Positions 28,625 through 38,347 of a stretch of 64,000 nt of DNA are shown here, in pieces; the stretch's first letter is position 1, and the number at the start of each line of letters is the position of its first letter. The notes under the pieces are model-generated. The model was not told the DNA's origin, ran no database searches, and was given only the letters and a program-made list of their open reading frames with translations. A program made the translations under genes and the position numbers. This DNA comes from Macrostomum lignano (taxonomy: Eukaryota). The stretch spans positions 124,001 to 188,000 of the forward strand of contig NIVC01000299.1 in the NCBI GenBank assembly GCA_002269645.1, read 5' to 3'.

Positions 28625-29400
28625 TGAGGCAGGCCCAATATTCTTATACGTATACCATTTCGAATTTACGCCAAATTTCTTAGTTACCGAATTATTTTGT
28701 TTAAACGAAACATTTGTTATAACGAAGAATAATTATTTTGTTTAAATTGATGAAGTAATATTTTGTTTAAACACGTCCCGCGCACCCGTCCCCCCCTCAG
28801 TAAAACCTATAAATACAAGCGTTTTCGGGCTTTAAAACTTCGCCCGCCGTTTCCTTGATTCGGTTAAGAAAAGCAAAACGTGTTGTCTTAGTCACTGGAA
28901 AGCAAGACAGGAGAGAAAGCTGTTAGAAGTAAGAAAGCTGTAAGAAGCCAGAAAAAGCCGTAAGAGGCCAGGAAAGCTGTAAGAAGCCAGAAATAGACGG
29001 TTGACGAGTCGGGCAACTCCTTCCCAGGGAGCCCGCAACTAAATATAGGGAATTAATAGTAGTAATAATAATAGTAGTGAGATTCATAACTACATGTAGA
29101 CCAGTGTTTGCCGCTCGACACTGCTACCAGGGCGACTTGCATAGATTCAAGGAGTCCTTAGATTAGAATTCTAGACTTGATATTTTCTAAGAAGCAGCAA
29201 TTGACTAAGCAATTTTATGGAGTAATAACTATTCTAAATTACAACAACTTGATTCTGTAGTGTGATTATAAACTAGGAAGTGTATAGCCCTGGTACAACT
29301 TGGTAACAGCAGTGGGATCTTAACAGACAGAAATACCCCCTGCAACAACTTGGTGGCATAGTGGAATAAAAATACAATAATAGTAAAGACACCTACAACA
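28625..29400 (+). repeat. 5' LTR
   Basis: TGAGGCAGG...CCTACAACA; TATAAATA at 28808; three TTTTGTTTAAA motifs in U3. Confidence 0.95.
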
Positions 29401-29403
29401 ACT

Positions 29404-29415
29404 TGGTGGCAGCGG
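29404..29415 (+). other. Primer-binding site complementary to the tRNA-Leu 3' end
   Basis: TGGTGGCAGCGG, 3 nt after the LTR end, matches the reverse complement of the metazoan tRNA-Leu(AAG/TAG) end CCGCTGCCACCA. Confidence 0.85.
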
Positions 29416-29551
29416 AAAGGGATTGGAATCCGACTAAGTCGACCGCTAAAGCGAATAACGTGAGAGTACAGCGAATAACGTGAGAGTACAGCGAATAACG
29501 TGAGAGTACAGCGAATAACGTGAGAGTACAGCAATTAACGTGAGAGTACAG

Positions 29552-30451
29552 ATGGCAGCACTTAATGACGCTATAGGTTTATTAGCAGAGGAACTTAGGA
29601 ACAGGCTAGAGTTAGGGCCCATGAGACATGTAAAGATTCAAAAGTACACCCCTAGCCAGGATGTACGAATTTGGTTGACTGCATTCGATCAAAGGTGTGA
29701 TCAGGAAGGAATAGATCAGGAGCACAGGAAAACTGAACTTCTAGCTAACCTAGATCTGTCAACTGCATTCGCTGCAGTACAGCGATTAAATTTACCCGAG
29801 GATTTGACGTATGAGGAATTTAAGGAGAGATTGGTGGAAAGATTTGGCCGGATTGGTAGCTCATCTGAGTGCAGAGAGGAGTTCAGAGGTAGGATGCAGG
29901 GTAGAAACGAGGCAACCGACGTGTTCGCCGATGCTTTGATCGAACTAGCAGCTAGGGCGTTCCCAAATATGAACGCAGAACAGCGTGAAGAGGAAGTAAT
30001 CGAGCAATTTATCAAGGGAGTAAGAATTTCCTCCGATACCCGGGAGAAACTCATTTTTGCTCAGCCCACTAGCCTGCAGGAGGCCAGACGCATGCTTAGG
30101 AGAATAGAAGCAGCCTGGCATATGTCGCATAAGAACGGTGTCAGAGTCGTGAGAGACGAAGATGATGAGAAGAGCAAGCTAGAAAAGCTAATTAAGCAGC
30201 AGAAATCTGAGCTCGAAGAGCAGAAGAAGCTAATTCAGGAACTGCAAGCTGAAAAGCAGCAGCCGCCAGTTACTCAGACTAGGCCGCAATACTATCAGCC
30301 AAGAGTTCAGGCGTTCCAGCCACAGCTTCGCCCGCTGATGCAGCAGCAGATAAGGAGGCAGATTCCGTGGAAGCCAACACAGAATGTAGTGCGACCTGGC
30401 TTTAACAACCAGAGTCGATTCCCTGCCCGCAACCCCAATCAGGGAAACTAG
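29552..30451 (+). CDS. gag: Gag polyprotein
   Basis: 300-codon ORF with Ty3 capsid-like motifs (WLTAFDQRC, FRGRMQGRNE, EQFIKG); preceded by 20-bp leader repeats at 29451-29550. Confidence 0.9.
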   Translation: MAALNDAIGLLAEELRNRLELGPMRHVKIQKYTPSQDVRIWLTAFDQRCDQEGIDQEHRKTELLANLDLSTAFAAVQRLNLPEDLTYEEFKERLVERFGRIGSSSECREEFRGRMQGRNEATDVFADALIELAARAFPNMNAEQREEEVIEQFIKGVRISSDTREKLIFAQPTSLQEARRMLRRIEAAWHMSHKNGVRVVRDEDDEKSKLEKLIKQQKSELEEQKKLIQELQAEKQQPPVTQTRPQYYQPRVQAFQPQLRPLMQQQIRRQIPWKPTQNVVRPGFNNQSRFPARNPNQGN

Positions 30452-30515
30452 GATTCGAGGGTCGATATTCGAGGCCACGTCCCTCTGGGAAACCCCAAAG
30501 CGAAGCTCAGGCCTC
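30442..30515 (+). other. -1 programmed ribosomal frameshift signal
   Basis: G GGA AAC (30442-30448) sits in the gag frame directly before the TAG, and the pol frame is -1 and open from here. Potential pseudoknot: 30457-61 pairs with 30481-85, and 30471-76 pairs with 30510-15. Confidence 0.75.
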
Positions 30516-33500
30516 TCATTTCTCCCGCAAACCCGTTTTCAACCCACTCCCTGGAGGATGGCGACAAGTCCCATTTTCCAGGAATTCAATGCGTAATGCA
30601 CCAATGCGTAATGCACCAACGCGTAATGCACCTGTAAACAGCGCGTCTCCCATCGCGCTATCTCCTAATATGTTTGAGTTATTGGCGTCAGAGCCCAGTG
30701 AGTCAGATGCAAAAGCATCAGCATCTGAGTTGACAAAGTCCCCAGTGACTAAGCCAGCAAATGCAAAGCAGAAGGCGAGGAAATCTCGCAAAGCGAAATA
30801 TCGTGAAGCTAAGAAAGCAGCTGAGAAAACAAAAGTTGATTTGATAAGCGAGAAAAGTAGCGAAGCAATTGTCTTTGGAGACGTTGAAGGTCAAGAAATT
30901 GACTTCTTGCTTGACACCGGAGCCGGAAACTGCTTCCTGAGCAAGTCAGTATGGTCCAAGGTGATCAAGACAGAGCAAATCCGAGAAACCAATAAGAGAG
31001 TTACCACATTTGATGGTTCCTCAGTGCAGCTAGAAGGAGAAGCTAGTGTGTCTGTAACCTTTGGAGATATTCAAATTAATACCAGCTTTTTGCTGTGCAG
31101 CTATGAATGTGATAACATTCTTGGCATGGACTTCTTCCTTTCCCACTGTAAGAGCATTGATTTAGACAATGGCATGCTTGTACTAAAAAGAGGCCTCTGT
31201 GTGCCTATGCAGTACACTCGCCAAGCAGTTAGAATTTGCCGAGTTTATACTCGAGAAAAGGCAGTAGTACCTGCTAATAGTGCATTGAGAGTTCCCATTA
31301 GGCTAGCGAAAGACCATGAGCCCAATCATGGCACTCCTATGACAGTAGAAGTGATCGGAGAAGGCGTGAGAGCCAAGGAATTGACAGTAGAGATGGTTCC
31401 GACATTGGTCACCATGAGAGACGGCAGTGCCATCGTGGAGATCGTGAATCGACACTCTGTCGACGTGAGACTGCCGAAGTCGACATTGATTGGTCTGGCC
31501 AAGCCCATGAGAGCCAAGGACCTCGTCTACTGGTCAGCATCGCCTTCCGCCGCCGAATCAGCTTCGCCGACAATTGCCGAAGATGCCGCACAACCCGCCG
31601 GACGTGTCAATCAAGCTCAGGCAACTGAAGATGCTTGGGTGAGCGAAATTAGTATTGGTGCCGATTTATCTGAAAGTCAGCGAAAAGCAGTAATTGATCT
31701 CGTGAGAGAGAATAGAGAAGCATTTTCCCAGCATGATTTAGACATGGGATTGACTCATCTAGTCACTCATGAAATTTCCCTGAAAGACGAGACCCCTGTT
31801 AGAATCCCTACCCGCCGCATCCCCCCTCATCTCCAAAAACAAGTCGACGCCCAGCTAGACGACATGCTAGCCAAGAATCTCATTCACCCTGCTATTCTAC
31901 CTATTCTACCCCATTAGTCATTGTGCCAAAGAAGGATGGCACCATCCGAATAGTGAGTGATTTCCAAGTGCTCAACTCTAGAGTTAACTATTTTCCCTAT
32001 CCCCTCCCCAATATTCAAGAAACTTTTTCTAATATTACTGGCAGTAGGTACTTTAGTAGTTTAGATCTTAACTCAGGTTATTGGCAAGTGCCTATAAAGG
32101 AAGAGCATAAGTTCATGACCGCGTTCTCTACTCTGACGCGAGGACAGTTTGAGTACCAGGTTATGGCGCAAGGGTTATCCAACGCGCCCGGTACATTTCA
32201 AAGACTGATGAACTTAGTGCTAGCCGGAATCCAGCATAAGTTTGCAATGTCGTATATTGACGATATAGTTACTTACTCGAAGCAATTTGAGGAGCATTTA
32301 TCCCACCTAAGAGAGGTGTTTCAGAGATTGATCACCGCAGGTTTAAAGTTGAGAGCGAAAAAGTGCAACTTATTTCACTCTGAACTCAAGTATCTAGGCC
32401 ATGTGATAGGCAGAGATGGCATTCGCACAGACGAAGCCAAGATTGAAGCCATTAGGACCTGGCCAAAGCCAAAGGAAGTAAAGGAATTGAGAAGCTTTCT
32501 AGGATTGTGCAATTACTACAGCAGATTTGTCAAAAATTATGCTGAAGTAGCGCATCCTCTTTTCCAACTGACTCGTAAGGGAGTTCAAAACTTCCAAGCA
32601 AAATGGACAGCAAAGCATGATGAAGCGTTTGAGCTATTGAAAACCCGTATGATGAGTACTGAAGTATTAGCGTACCCTGAGTTCATAGACAATGAGAAGG
32701 TGAAGATGGTTCTCGATGTAGACGCCAGTGATGGACGCATAGGTGCCTGTTTGGGACAAATCCAATCAGACGGTGTCGAGAGACCAATCGCCTACTTTAG
32801 TCGCGCTATGAAGGAGTCAGAGAAACGCTATCCCATAACTCGCAAGGAGTTGCTAGCTCTAGTAGATGCCATGAGGCATTTCCGCTTCCATCTAATAGGA
32901 AAGAAATTTCTAGCTAGGACCGACCATAAGGCTATACTTTGGTTATTAAGGCAGACAGAAGCCCAGGGCATTTTAGGCAGATGGATTGAGCGCCTCAACG
33001 AGTTTCAATTTGAAATTGAGCATAGGAGTGGCGCGAAACATTCAAATGCCGATAGCTTGTCCCGAAGGCCAGCCGAGGCTGCCCAGCCAGATAGTAAAGC
33101 CGATGAGAAGGCGGAAGCCGAGACAAAGAGTCAAGAGATAAGCAAAATCACCAGCAAAGGCGTAAGAGCCGAAGTGAACCAAGAGATAAGAACTGATAAA
33201 GAGGAGTTTATCCCCAGCGAACGCGTGTGTGCAAAGCAGAACCAGAATGGGAAGGCTAAGGACAGCATGAGCGATCTGATCCAGCCCCCCACTGAGCTGA
33301 GAGAAGGAGAGACCAACCCCCCTGAGCCACAGAGGAATAAAATAGTCTCTGGTGAGAAGAGTGTAAGGATTGACAGTGTGAAAACACAGAGCTCCTGCGT
33401 TATGCAATCGAGCAGAGTCACCCCACAATCTGAGCATAGTGAGGAGTATGGCACGCTGAAGGTTGGAGCATTATTAGTTGACTTCCTACCCAACCCCCTG

Positions 33501-35213
33501 CGGAGAGAGCAGATCGTTAATGCCCAGCGAGAAGACCCCAATATTCTCACTTTGCTAAATTGCAAACTCGAAGGAAAGGAACCCCCCGCCGAGCAAAAGA
33601 GTATTAGCTCAGAATTAAGGCAGTTGAGCAAATTTTACGAGAAAATGAAAATCGAAAGCGATATGCTTGTTATTGAAGAAGAAGGAGTAAGCAAAATTGT
33701 ATTGCCAGTGTCGCTAGACAAATTAGTGCTGGCTGATCTACACGTTAGCCCACTAGCAGGACACTTGGGTCGTGATAAAACAGTGCAAAGAGTTAGGGAG
33801 AGATTCTGGAGACCCGGCTTAGTAACAGCCATTGAGAAGTACATATCTGAGTGTATTCCGTGTTTGGAAAGCAAAAGAGGATGCCCTGTTCAGGCTCCAG
33901 TGCAGTCATTCCCAGTCAACGAGGCATTCCACCGCCTGCATATCGATATCATAGGCCCCATTTCCAAGGAAAGCAGGAGAGGCCATAGATATGTGCTGAC
34001 TGTAGTTGATAGCACTACCCGCTACCCATTCGCGTTCCCAATCCGTAACCAGAAGTCTGACACAGTGATTAAGATCCTACAGGAGCGAATTTTCAGCGAA
34101 TACGGTCAATGCCATTGGATACATACTGACAATGGGAAAACCTTCACAAGCAGACAGTTCAAAGCGTTTTGCGATTTGTACAATGTTAAACACACTTGTA
34201 CCACCCCGTACCATGCCCAAAGTAATGGCTTGGTAGAGAGGTTTAACAAGCAAGTGAAATCCATCATTACCTGTTTAATTAAGAAGGACCATAGCAATTG
34301 GGATCTAATGATTCCCGCAGCGCTTGTTGCAGTGCGCACTAGTGTGAATCAAACCACAGGCTATTCACCCTATTTCCTGTTATTCGGAAGGGAGCCAGTT
34401 TTGCCACTAGACAGTCAAATTCGCCAGCCAAATCAGTACTCAGGCTATCCAGCCTATGTCGCAGATCATGCCGAAAGGCTAGAAATTGCCAGAAAAATCG
34501 TGAGAGATAAGCTCGAGAAAGTTGCTGATAATAGAAAGAATATTGCTGAAACAGCCAAGCAGCCTAAGGAAGTACCAGTAGGGAGTTTAGCGTTATTAAA
34601 TAACCCGCAGTTAGACAATGAGGAGTCTAACAAATTTCACAGAAAGAAGAGAGCCGCCTATAGAGTGATCGAACAGATCTCAGACGTAGTGTTTAGAGTG
34701 CAGAAAGAAGAGGATGGTGAGCTTGTAGGGAATAAATTATTAGTGCATAGGGACAATTTAACACTAGTTCCTAATTCGACCGCAGAATTGCCAATTAAGG
34801 GAAGCCAGCAGGAGAGGCGCCGGAAGAAAAATCAGTCAAGGAGGGAACCTAAAGCTAAGGGAAGCCACCCGCCGAGGAAGCCTAAGGAGATAGTGATTAG
34901 TGAAGAGTCTGAGTATGACACTGAATCTGAGGATGAGCGAGTGCAATGGCAATGCCAAATGAGAGAGTCCGAAACGGAACCAGCAACTGAGAGCGAAGAT
35001 GAGAGCCAAGAGTCAGAGAGTGCAGTAGAAGAAGAAGGAATAATGAGCAATGCAGAAGACACCAGAGAGAACAATGAGATTGAGCATGAGCACGAGGAAG
35101 CTAATTCAGAGAGGAGATACAATACACGCAGGCAGGTCAGGCCCCCCAAGTGCTATTGTTGCTTGAAGCGGCTGGCCACTGTGCTGTCGTTGTTGGGCAA
35201 TCTCAGTTTCTGA
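30442..35213 (+). CDS. pol: Pol polyprotein (protease, RT, RNase H, integrase), interrupted by one 1-nt deletion at ~31894
   Basis: Protease FLLDTGAG; RT LDLNSGYWQV, QGLSNAPGTF and YIDD; RNase H DVDAS/KELLA/RTDH; integrase HHCC plus IDIIG, TDNG and LVERFN. Adding one A restores PANSTYSTPLVIVPKKDG. Confidence 0.93.
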
Positions 35214-35433
35214 GTGGAGGAGAAGGGAGGAAGGAGAAGGAGTGAGAGCCAATGAGAGGAGGCGTAGAGGTGAAGGGATTTCGAGGCCGTGGATAGGAGG
35301 AGAGAGGCGAAGAGGCCGACAGACAACAAGGAAGAATCATCAGCCAATGAGAGAAGACCTGCCATTTAAAACAAATATTTGTTTAAATAAACTCGAAACT
35401 TAATACCCCCCCAAAGTGGAATGTTTGCAAATC

Positions 35434-35464
35434 TATATAAGCGAGATCCCTGACGCAATCAGTT
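35434..35464 (+). promoter_or_regulatory. Putative internal TATA/Inr promoter for ORF3
   Basis: TATATAA at 35434-35440 and TCAGTT at 35459-35464 (A +1 is 27 nt from the TATA start), about 75 nt before the ORF3a ATG. Confidence 0.55.
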
Positions 35465-35534
35465 CCTCATCCTCAACAGAGCAATAAGGCAGCAATTAAG
35501 TAGCAATAAAGAAGCAGTCAAGAGCAAATCCGTT

Positions 35535-36008
35535 ATGGATAAAGAAAACGAAGAGTTAAATATTTTAGCAGACGGTAGTGAATTTGACGATCTATTAAAA
35601 GAGCTTGAAGGGCCTTGGCCCATGCAGCAAGATGAGCAAACTGAGAAACCACAGCCAGAGCGTTCAGCGCAGCAAAACGAGCAAGAACAGCTAGCTGAGG
35701 CTCCGTCGCAGCCGCCTGCTACGCAGCAGCCTGCTCCGACGCTGGCACCGCCGTCAGAGCCATTACGGGAGCGTCAGCCAGCTGACCTGCCCGGGCCCTC
35801 GCAGCCACCGGAGCCCTCCACCAAGCCAAAGCGACCTGCTGCAGAAACGGATCAGGGTACACAAGCAAAGAGGCCGGCCCCGTCAAGGCTGCCAGTGTCC
35901 CAGGATCCAGCAGCACGACAGGAGCTCGTTAGAGTGAAGTCGGTGCAGTCCGTGGTGGTGAAGCCGACGGTTATGAAGAGGCACCCGGCGGCGCGCGGCC
36001 CACACTGA
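35535..36008 (+). CDS. Gypsy accessory ORF3a, acidic then Pro/Gln-rich 157-aa protein of unknown function
   Basis: ATG-initiated ORF inside the element after pol; its stop overlaps the next ATG (TGATG at 36006-36010). Confidence 0.55.
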   Translation: MDKENEELNILADGSEFDDLLKELEGPWPMQQDEQTEKPQPERSAQQNEQEQLAEAPSQPPATQQPAPTLAPPSEPLRERQPADLPGPSQPPEPSTKPKRPAAETDQGTQAKRPAPSRLPVSQDPAARQELVRVKSVQSVVVKPTVMKRHPAARGPH

Positions 36009-37201
36009 TGTTAGCTGCCCCGCCTCAGCAGCAGCGGCCAGCTCAGCGGTCGCAGCCATCACAGCCTCGTCGTATGGCGTCGCGAATCGAAGTCCGACAG
36101 CAGCTGCCAGTGCACCGCAGGCTGGCTCCGCGGCCGCCGCCACAGCAGCGTCAGCAGTCGCCGCCGCGGCACCGCCACCAGTCTCCACCGCGGCATCATC
36201 AGCAGCCACCGCCGTCTCAGCATCATCAGCAGCCACCGCCGTCTCAGCATCATCAGCAGCCACCGCCGTCTCAGCATCATCAGCAGCCACCGCCGTCTCA
36301 GCATCATCAGCAGCCACCGCCGTCTTAGCATCATCAGCAGCCACCGCCGTCTCAGCATCATCAGCAGCCACCGCCGTCTCAGCATCATCAGCAGCCACCG
36401 CCGTCTCAGCATCATCAGCAGCCACCGCCGTCTCAGCATCATCAGCAGCCACCGCCGTCTCAGCATCATCAGCAGCCACCGCCGTCTCAGCATCATCAGC
36501 AGCCACCGCCGTCTCAGCATCATCAGCAGCCACCGCCGTCTCAGCATCATCAGCAGCCACCGCCGTCTTAGCATCATCAGCAGCCACCGCCGTCTCAGCA
36601 TCATCAGCAGCCACCGCCGTCTCAGCATCATCAGCAGCCACCGCCGTCTCAGCATCATCAGCAGCCACCGCCGTCTCAGCATCATCAGCAGCCACCGCCG
36701 TCTCAGCATCATCAGCAGCCACCGTCGCATCAGCAGCCGCCACCGCAGACTGCAGTGCCACCACAGGCGTCAACCTGCCGCGCAGCTGCAAGTTATTTGT
36801 TTGCCCCCGGCAACCAAGACATCCAAAGGCTTGCTGCGATGGGCGCCGATTTCAGCGCTATCATGGACGGTCTGTCGCCAGAGCAGCAGGCAAGAATGAA
36901 GCGACTGATTGCGGCCCTGAAGGAGTATCTAATGCGAATCGGCCACTTGCGGTTGGACCGGCCGCTGCCACAGCGGGCCCAGGTCCGGCCAGCTTGCATT
37001 GTGCTTCGCCAAGAGTTCACGCCTGAGCAAGCTGTCGCGGCTTGGCGCCGCGCTGTGAACTACGTACTTCATGACCTGAATGCGGCTGGCCAGCCGTACT
37101 TTCACACGCTGCTTATTATCGAGATTAAGTGGCTCGCCGAGCAAGTCGGATGGCTTCTACGCGACCTTTTGCCGGACGAATTTAATCTGAACGATAATTA
37201 G
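36008..37201 (+). CDS. Gypsy accessory ORF3b: (HHQQPPPSQ)x~20 repeat plus ~130-aa helical C-terminal domain; two CAG>TAG stops in the repeat
   Basis: The track ORFs 36008-36328 and 36755-37201 share one frame, broken only by TAG variants at 36326 and 36568 of a 27-bp repeat (36192-36725). No signal peptide or TM segment, so not env. Confidence 0.55.
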
Positions 37202-37556
37202 GTGACTATAACTAAACTGTCATGTACTGTTATTTTTCTTGCATTGCATGCATACCTATTTAGCCTTCACTAATTGTGCATGGATACTTATTTAGCCAAA
37301 ATTTTTGTGTGCTCAACTTTGTGCAACTTTATATCTAGCCAAAAATCTTTTTGTACGCTCAGCTTTGTGCCATTTTAATAATAGTCAACCTTGCTCAATT
37401 CTTCCACTAACTATATTACTGATATTACCACGTTGTGTGCTGTTTTAATGTTTTAGTGTCAGCCAATTTTATTTAGTGCCTACGTTTTGTGATTAAAAGC
37501 CCCCTTTGCACTTTAACTACACATTTATTCACTCACTAGTTTATTCATAAATATGT

Positions 37557-37570
37557 AGAAGGGAAGCCAG
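37557..37570 (+). other. Polypurine tract
   Basis: AGAAGGGAAGCCAG immediately upstream of the 3' LTR. Confidence 0.7.
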
Positions 37571-37571
37571 T

Positions 37572-38347
37572 TGAGGCAGGCCCAATATTCTTATACGTAT
37601 ACCATTTCGAATTTACGCCAAATTTCTTAGTTACCGAATTATTTTGTTTAAACGAAACATTTGTTATAACGAAGAATAATTATTTTGTTTAAATTGATGA
37701 AGTAATATTTTGTTTAAACACGTCCCGCGCACCCGTCCCCCCCTCAGTAAAACCTATAAATACAAGCGTTTTCGGGCTTTAAAACTTCGCCCGCCGTTTC
37801 CTTGATTCGGTTAAGAAAAGCAAAACGTGTTGTCTTAGTCACTGGAAAGCAAGACAGGAGAGAAAGCTGTTAGAAGTAAGAAAGCTGTAAGAAGCCAGAA
37901 AAAGCCGTAAGAGGCCAGGAAAGCTGTAAGAAGCCAGAAATAGACGGTTGACGAGTCGGGCAACTCCTTCCCAGGGAGACCGCAACTAAATATAGGGAAT
38001 TAATAGTAGTAATAATAATAGTAGTGAGATTCATAACTACATGTAGACCAGTGTTTGCCGCTCGACACTGCTACCAGGGCGACTTGCATAGATTCAAGGA
38101 GTCCTTAGATTAGAATTCTAGACTTGATATTTTCTAAGAAGCAGCAATTGACTAAGCAATTTTATGGAGTAATAACTATTCTAAATTACAACAACTTGAT
38201 TCTGTAGTGTGATTATAAACTAGGAAGTGTATAGCCCTGGTACAACTTGGTAACAGCAGTGGGATCTTAACAGACAGAAATACCCCCTGCAACAACTTGG
38301 TGGCATAGTGGAATAAAAATACAATAATAGTCAAGACACCTACAACA
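37572..38347 (+). repeat. 3' LTR
   Basis: 776 bp; two substitutions noticed against the 5' LTR (gagccc/gagacc and tagtaa/tagtca). Confidence 0.95.

Follow-up and report, generated by a model that had tools for sequence, protein, structure and literature searches.

Sequence comparison points to ORF3 as a selected orphan accessory gene with unusual cassette evolution in a Gypsy clade of Macrostomum lignano

Introduction

Extra open reading frames (ORFs) of LTR retrotransposons are well known, and to our knowledge almost none of them has an assigned function. A described accessory gene of a related kind is tas of the foamy viruses, which is located downstream of the main genes, ahead of the 3' LTR, and has an internal promoter (PMC6669543). 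In plants, the maize element Grande carries gene23, a nuclear orphan ORF that is placed between pol and the 3' LTR, under its own promoter (PMC7264820), while in Oikopleura the env ORF of Tor elements is driven by a promoter, Penv, located in or behind pol (PMC4402516). Among the non-env extra genes of invertebrate elements, the ORF3s of bdelloids are captured enzymes of known folds (PMC5408684), and CERV of the Caenorhabditis elegans element Cer1 is made from a spliced mRNA and exports RNA (PMC10309623). Accessory proteins are also found on DNA transposons, as in Arabidopsis, where VANC proteins are anti-silencing factors associated with DNA demethylation and type-specific tandem-repeat targets (PMC5735166).

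The locus described here, ORF3 of a Gypsy clade in the flatworm M. lignano, resembles each of these systems in part. Like tas, it follows the main genes and precedes the 3' LTR, has a candidate promoter of its own and combines acidic and basic parts such as an activator would be expected to have; in contrast to tas, its host is a Gypsy retrotransposon without env, the searches gave it no sequence or fold match to Tas, and activation by ORF3 is putative. It shares with Grande gene23 and other additional ORFs of plant elements the status of a conserved orphan ORF between pol and the 3' LTR, whereas those ORFs are antisense and from plants, and ORF3 is sense, animal, unrelated in sequence and present in many exchangeable types. 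As in Tor of Oikopleura, it is the third ORF of an invertebrate Gypsy-like element with a candidate promoter near the end of pol, yet the Tor protein is a membrane glycoprotein and the Macrostomum protein has no hydrophobic segment. Bdelloid ORF3s and CERV are likewise non-env extra genes of invertebrate LTR elements, but no homology was found between either and Macrostomum ORF3. Finally, ORF3 and VANC are both element-encoded accessory proteins that diverge strongly between related elements, although a k-mer and repeat survey detected no type-specific tandem-repeat targets for ORF3.

Macrostomum Gypsy elements have been placed in the Mag, CsRN1, Gmr1/Osvaldo and Mdg3 clades (PMC12801592), and the term 'orf' occurs 0 times in the accessible text of that paper. 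Literature searches gave no description of Macrostomum ORF3, though earlier Macrostomum classification work may bear on its novelty, and the titles and abstract openings searched contained no LTR retrotransposon with its own transactivator.

Results

The window, a stretch of 64,000 nucleotides from contig NIVC01000299.1 of M. lignano, carries on its forward strand a young Gypsy element, the 776 bp LTRs of which (28625-29400 and 37572-38347) differ by 2 mismatches. The element has the Ty3/Gypsy hallmarks of TG..CA LTRs, a primer-binding site (TGGTGGCAGCGG..., 29404-29423) common to the whole clade, a polypurine tract (37555-37571) and a short target-site duplication, which is 4 bp in relatives and contains one mismatch in the window copy. 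We take the primer-binding site to be tRNA-Leu-like. The gene order is gag followed by PR-RT-RH-IN, with gag at 29552-30451 giving only a weak, sub-threshold Retrotrans_gag match (E 0.014), and pol (protease, RT, RNase H and integrase) at 30406-35213 being interrupted here by a single frame break near 31,890. Three copies of TTTGTTTAAA lie in U3 of the 3' LTR ahead of the LTR TATA box. At the U5 ends of the window LTRs (29290-29423 and 38237-38347), two degenerate copies of the LTR end plus primer-binding site precede the real one; 0-3 such relics per LTR were seen across the clade, where U5 ends are variable.

ORF3 (35535-37201), a single gene in sibling copies, is broken here: a one-base frameshift lies near 35,989, and stops follow at 36326 and 36569. 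It begins with an acidic amphipathic N-terminus (35535-35624; predicted helices 3-12 and 15-24), which is followed by a basic, Pro-rich, predicted-disordered linker (35625-36193) containing conserved short motifs, NLS-like motifs and one predicted helix, by a 27-bp minisatellite (36194-36733) with 20 units here, 2-11 in siblings and none in other families, and by an all-helical C-terminal domain of no known family (36764-37198; pLDDT 90). The motifs listed in the initial annotation are all in place: AATAAA at 35386, TATATAA at 35434 and TCAGTT at 35459 in the intergenic stretch, the palindrome AAACAAATATTTGTTT at 35369, the TGATG at 36006 that ends ORF3a (35535-36008, 157 aa), the 20 repeat units, and two identical CAG>TAG changes 9 units apart, in units 5 and 14 of the array (36326 and 36569). 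Of the 7 occurrences of TTTGTTTAAA in the whole window, one is at 35378 and the other six are divided equally between the two LTRs. Minisatellites are very dense throughout the window (67 entries), and the repeat expansion in ORF3 is consistent with this background.

The meaning given to several of these features changed once sibling copies were compared. A DNA search of the M. lignano genome gave 11 matches, 7 of which are siblings at 96-97% identity, six of them with complete 3' ends and six different flanks. The initial annotation had proposed two cistrons, ORF3a and ORF3b, joined by termination-reinitiation, but the site of the supposed overlap is read through in one frame in 7/7 siblings, and a contig crossing 35989 (run X3, guessed to be RNA) lacks the frame break of the window; ORF3 is intact and single, with 454-480 aa, in 4/7 siblings, and has frameshifts elsewhere in the other 3. 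None of the 7 carries the palindrome, the AATAAA, the overlap frame, a TAG unit or the forward TTTGTTTAAA seen at 35378 in the window, and the sibling arrays number 2-11 units when counted with the pattern used for the window copy. The TGATG overlap is thus only apparent and results from the frameshift near 35,989, and since the siblings lack the overlap, the TAG stops and the long array, the comparison identifies these as lesions or assembly errors of the window copy. The two identical TAGs 9 units apart would be compatible with a single change that was later copied by a block duplication. The (HHQQPPPSQ)20 array, previously suggested to be a functional prion-like repeat, likewise lost that standing, as its length is variable and it is limited to one family: 2-20 units occur in family 1 and it is missing elsewhere, the shared feature being Pro-rich disorder only. 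The window copy forms its own sub-lineage, with no close twin found among the own-genome matches; its C-terminal domain differs from that of L013 by 13 synonymous and 2 nonsynonymous changes (dS 0.14).

A search of the genome with the C-terminal domain gave at least 150 scored matches of 262 candidates, with 30-100% identity. Seventy ORF3 loci were examined, 60 of them hand-picked across the ranking of the matches. Complete gag-pol precedes ORF3 at 44 loci, partial pol at 9 and gag only at 8, while neither gag nor pol was found within ~7.8 kb at 9/70, some element DNA being present at 8 of those 9. Full-length ORF3 is intact in 37/70 loci, with lengths of 279-535 aa, and in every other family it is a single ORF. 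Among the pairs listed, the 24 with dS of 0.06-1.14, which are not independent, have dN/dS of 0-0.26, and these ratios indicate that ORF3 is under purifying selection. More distant pairs have dN/dS of 0.19-0.77 but are saturated and hence uninformative, and no sign of positive selection was seen. Non-LTR retrotransposon fragments sit inside ORF3 at L019 and L107. Copies of the domain with little or no element context also occur, at L109 and as identical matches on five contigs (L082/L083 and three more), and are remnants or further solo copies.

The layout of the protein is shared by the 37 intact members: the first 30 aa have a net charge of -7 to -11 in 37/37, an amphipathic N-terminal pattern is present in 31/37 and an NLS-like motif in 33/37, the linker is basic and mostly Pro-rich, and the C-terminal 115 aa have a net charge of +2 to +9. 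Recurrent linker motifs are of one kind in family 4 and of another in families 1-2, and neither is clade-wide; we label them PPxY-like and SxIP/SxLP-like, respectively. The maximal mean hydropathy in 19-residue windows is 0.27-1.11, so that a 19-residue hydrophobic stretch is absent from 37/37 members, in agreement with the earlier statement that ORF3b has no signal peptide or transmembrane segment. An Env identity therefore finds no support, as neither a signal peptide nor a transmembrane anchor was apparent by hydropathy and the N-terminus is strongly acidic in the 37 members. The sORF2/FAST-like proteins, which are short and single-pass membrane proteins (10.1101/2025.03.14.642691), were likewise dismissed as candidates given the length of ORF3 and its lack of a hydrophobic segment.

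AlphaFold confidently predicted the C-terminal domain (~120 aa) as seven helices (pLDDT 89.9), as the initial annotation had anticipated for a helical domain; outside this domain, the model of full ORF3 has no helices other than two at the N-terminus and one in the linker. Residues D65, P69, E120 and W130 are invariant, and eight positions carry Lys or Arg in at least 60% of members. Pfam gave nothing past the cut-off for ORF3 or for any of 28 aligned domains, and PDB sequences gave a best E of 0.25 for ORF3. A profile search of 1.84 billion proteins returned 7 matches: 5 from M. lignano, the P0002 cluster and one weak repeat protein (P0007, E 2e-4) taken as chance, leaving 6 credible matches, 5 of them from Macrostomum. 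P0001 is identical to the ORF of L099. Word-index searches returned none in one case, 1 Macrostomum gene model in another and 1 protein cluster in a third. The proteins P0002 and P0008, from sequencing runs, have the full ORF3 motif set and are at most 44% identical to anything in the M. lignano genome, so that the ORF3 family appears to extend to another organism. Foldseek found 0 matches at E<=0.001 in PDB and BFVD, the VIA fold search gave best Z values of 7.2 and 6.8 (0 at Z>=8), which does not in itself demonstrate a new fold, and the Atlas search with two queries had a best score of 0.77. No fusogen fold was among the matches listed in the fold searches, and Tas had no match in the Pfam, profile or Foldseek searches. 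A Gag origin of the domain was rejected (hhalign probability 0.2%). The view of ORF3 as a non-env accessory ORF that is conserved across the family, has promoter-like motifs of its own and lacks a recognisable homolog was therefore upheld.

The pol-ORF3 intergenic region (35214-35534) is a candidate internal promoter, with CCAAT at 35249 and 35344, the TATATAA at 35434 and the Inr-like TCAGTT at 35459. In 13/24 types the ORF3 start codon is preceded, at 72-160 nt, by a strict TATA, compared to 1.1 expected from shuffles and to 4 of 24 on the antisense strand, and the types that have it span all 7 pol families; CCAAT is found upstream in 15/24 types, with 5.1 expected. Because the ORF3 types are related, the P values for these motifs are too small. 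Within the tested stretch 11/24 types have no strict TATA, the exact Inr is limited to family 1, and the TATA+Inr pairing is weak alone because it occurs 3 times on the two strands of the window. Taken together, the motifs make an internal TATA/CCAAT promoter the likely origin of ORF3 transcripts. Contigs from 6 runs guessed to be RNA and 1 run of undefined kind cover ORF3 at least partly, and such contigs cannot show a start site or an expression level; several from the RNA-guessed runs bridge pol, promoter and ORF3, as would full-length RNA or DNA. Contig ends at 35407 are accounted for by sibling sequence plus adapter. No splice joint from the leader to ORF3 is present among the 9 joints listed.

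In the LTR, the motif TTGTTWWAA, i.e. TTGTT(A/T)(A/T)AA, is repeated upstream of the TATA box in 14/16 ORF3 types and may be a clade-wide host-factor site; we assume a resemblance to Forkhead or Sox sites. No own-type motif common to the internal promoter and its own U3 was found (mean rank 0.43-0.45 vs 0.5 under the null, n=16), and the repeat survey revealed no type-specific LTR tandem repeats, the repeats tracking pol family rather than ORF3 type. Both results rest on k-mer sharing and the repeat survey, which short targets or targets elsewhere could escape.

Clustering of the 44 complete elements gave 7 pol families, whereas with 8 pol-less ones included the resulting 52 elements gave, at the same threshold, 29 ORF3 types, a few of which are perhaps decayed copies; the total diversity is about 25-29 ORF3 types over 7 pol backbones. 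Pol family 4 has 9 ORF3 types on 14 near-identical elements and family 6 has 6 on 7. In 9/9 pairs of unlike types within a family, gag-pol is mostly 80-100% identical, whereas the stretch running from the promoter region to U3 inclusive is 36-65% identical, and RT dS is 0.10-0.25 where ORF3 dS is ~1.3-1.5. Some 3'-region clusters are common to 2-3 ORF3 types. In trees of 31 and 44 rows, restricted to copies with unbroken segments, the ORF3s of families 1, 2, 4 and 5 each form one clade, and those of families 6 and 7 together with the pol-less elements form one joint clade. These clades and the contrast in divergence between gag-pol and cassette suggest that ORF3 was likely acquired once and that old ORF3+LTR lineages may have been retained as they exchanged gag-pol with one another.

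Cassettes are common to autonomous elements and to pol-less partners with a short Gag, and selection on ORF3 within the latter is therefore not separable from that on the autonomous copies. The pol-less elements (L088, L097, L099, L100, L103, L104, L106, L107 and L112-L123) are about 5-7 kb long and consist of a diverged short Gag of ~200 aa, a non-coding middle, an integrase tail and the ORF3+LTR cassette; the short Gag is under purifying selection of its own (dN/dS 0.06-0.14). Among 14 loci fetched via the short Gag, independently of ORF3, 10 have the ORF3 domain, 2 are decayed, and two complete elements, L120 and L121, have lost it.

A solo locus is present in three homologous copies, L132-L134 (C846:44212, C3012:52820 and C2203:58541), which are 98.6-99.4% alike in coding sequence and 93.5-97.3% in the downstream flank. 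The gene (P0005 = Mlig026206) encodes 118 aa corresponding to the ORF3 C-terminal domain alone and has no LTR; gag, RT and integrase had no match within ~10 kb on either side. The locus retains ~170 bp of the family-6/7 element promoter including the TATA, hence this host-located copy looks element-derived. It is an annotated gene in an RNA-derived annotation set (PMC5730564), and as it lacks an LTR, this suggests that the internal promoter works without one. None of four gene ids that were looked up occurs in the accessible paper texts or the PMC12801592 supplements. On its sequence, the solo gene is a candidate domesticated dominant-negative.

Discussion

The acidic amphipathic start, the NLS-like motifs, the basic folded domain and the separate promoter lead us to favour, tentatively, a reading of ORF3 as a nuclear accessory product that probably activates transcription of its own element and is expressed from the internal promoter. 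In this reading, the basic helical domain would be the part that binds to the LTR and the internal promoter, through either nucleic acid or a chromatin factor, and the acidic N-terminal helix the part that recruits co-activators. The internal promoter could let ORF3 be made first and the LTR then be switched on, as with Tas of foamy viruses. The cassettes would be old lineages that are kept, with gag-pol exchanged between them via template switching. Several observations count against an activator: proteins that bind RNA or serve as adaptors may have acidic helices and basic patches too, the internal promoter and U3 share no own-type motif, the U3 motif TTGTTWWAA is clade-wide and LTR tandem repeats track pol family, 11/24 types have no strict TATA in the tested stretch, and two complete pol-less elements do without the domain. 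The co-inheritance of ORF3 and U3 is moreover explicable by linkage alone, because the two are adjacent.

A role after transcription appears rather unlikely, in which ORF3 would bind the element RNA for export, stability or escape from small-RNA silencing in a Rev- or CERV-like manner, possibly via condensates formed by the linker. The conserved basic patch and the long disordered linker agree with this, as does the precedent of CERV (PMC10309623). Weak fold neighbours point in the same direction, namely the Gle1 CTD (Z 6.9, rmsd 3.8, 116 aligned), Pdcd4 MA3 (Z 6.5, rmsd 5.0, 100 aligned) and NOT1 MIF4G (Z 5.5), but Z values of this size are typical of generic helical bundles. Furthermore, the absence of a leader-to-ORF3 joint among the 9 listed leaves no evident need to export unspliced RNA, and the invariant acidic N-terminal helix would be left unexplained.

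The activator reading can be extended to a joint scenario that we consider unlikely as a whole: a Gypsy clade with its own transactivator of new fold, an internal promoter, a match between ORF3 and LTR type, swapped cassettes, pol-less borrowers and a dominant-negative host copy. Here the pol-less parasites with their dedicated short Gag would borrow ORF3+LTR specificity cassettes, and the host copy, keeping the binding domain without the activation region, would act as a dominant-negative repressor.

Such a match between types could also reflect sequence-specific anti-silencing of the VANC kind (PMC5735166), with each ORF3 type recognising its own LTR type only and the diversity of cassettes arising from an arms race. 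The many types on near-identical backbones of families 4 and 6 and the cassettes common to pol-less elements and autonomous partners agree with this. It is nevertheless quite unlikely, since own-type motif sharing was not seen and tandem repeats do not track ORF3 type, since ORF3 divergence at saturated synonymous sites indicates that the lineages are old, positive selection not being in evidence, and since some 3'-region clusters span 2-3 ORF3 types.

Lentiviral accessory proteins and Ty1 p22 offer analogies for yet another function, in which ORF3 would act as an adaptor, binding a host restriction factor and so disabling it, or would be encoded by the element to control its own copy number. 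We regard this as improbable: the short conserved linear motifs within the disordered linker, and a promoter that would permit expression separately from gag-pol, are in its favour, but there is no similarity to Gag.

Finally, translation of ORF3a and ORF3b as two cistrons by stop-start reinitiation, with a functional prion-like repeat, is highly improbable: although the TGATG and the 20 units exist in the sequence and the window copy, as the sole member found of its sub-lineage, has no close twin for comparison, 7/7 siblings have one frame and no TAG unit, the other families have a single ORF, and ORF3b contains two further stops.

In conclusion, the comparative evidence identifies ORF3 as a genuine orphan accessory gene that is under selection, belongs to an entire clade and has evolved in cassettes in an unusual manner. 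It is an orphan family with a confidently predicted domain in an experimentally tractable host, for which transgenesis, LTR reporter assays and 5'-end RNA data exist (PMC12801592, PMC5730564). Natural controls are provided by the roughly 25-29 types that occur over 7 pol backbones, by the pol-less partners and by the truncated host copy. Together, the tractable host and this natural variation would make the self-switching of simple retroelements, and its counter-use by the host, testable.
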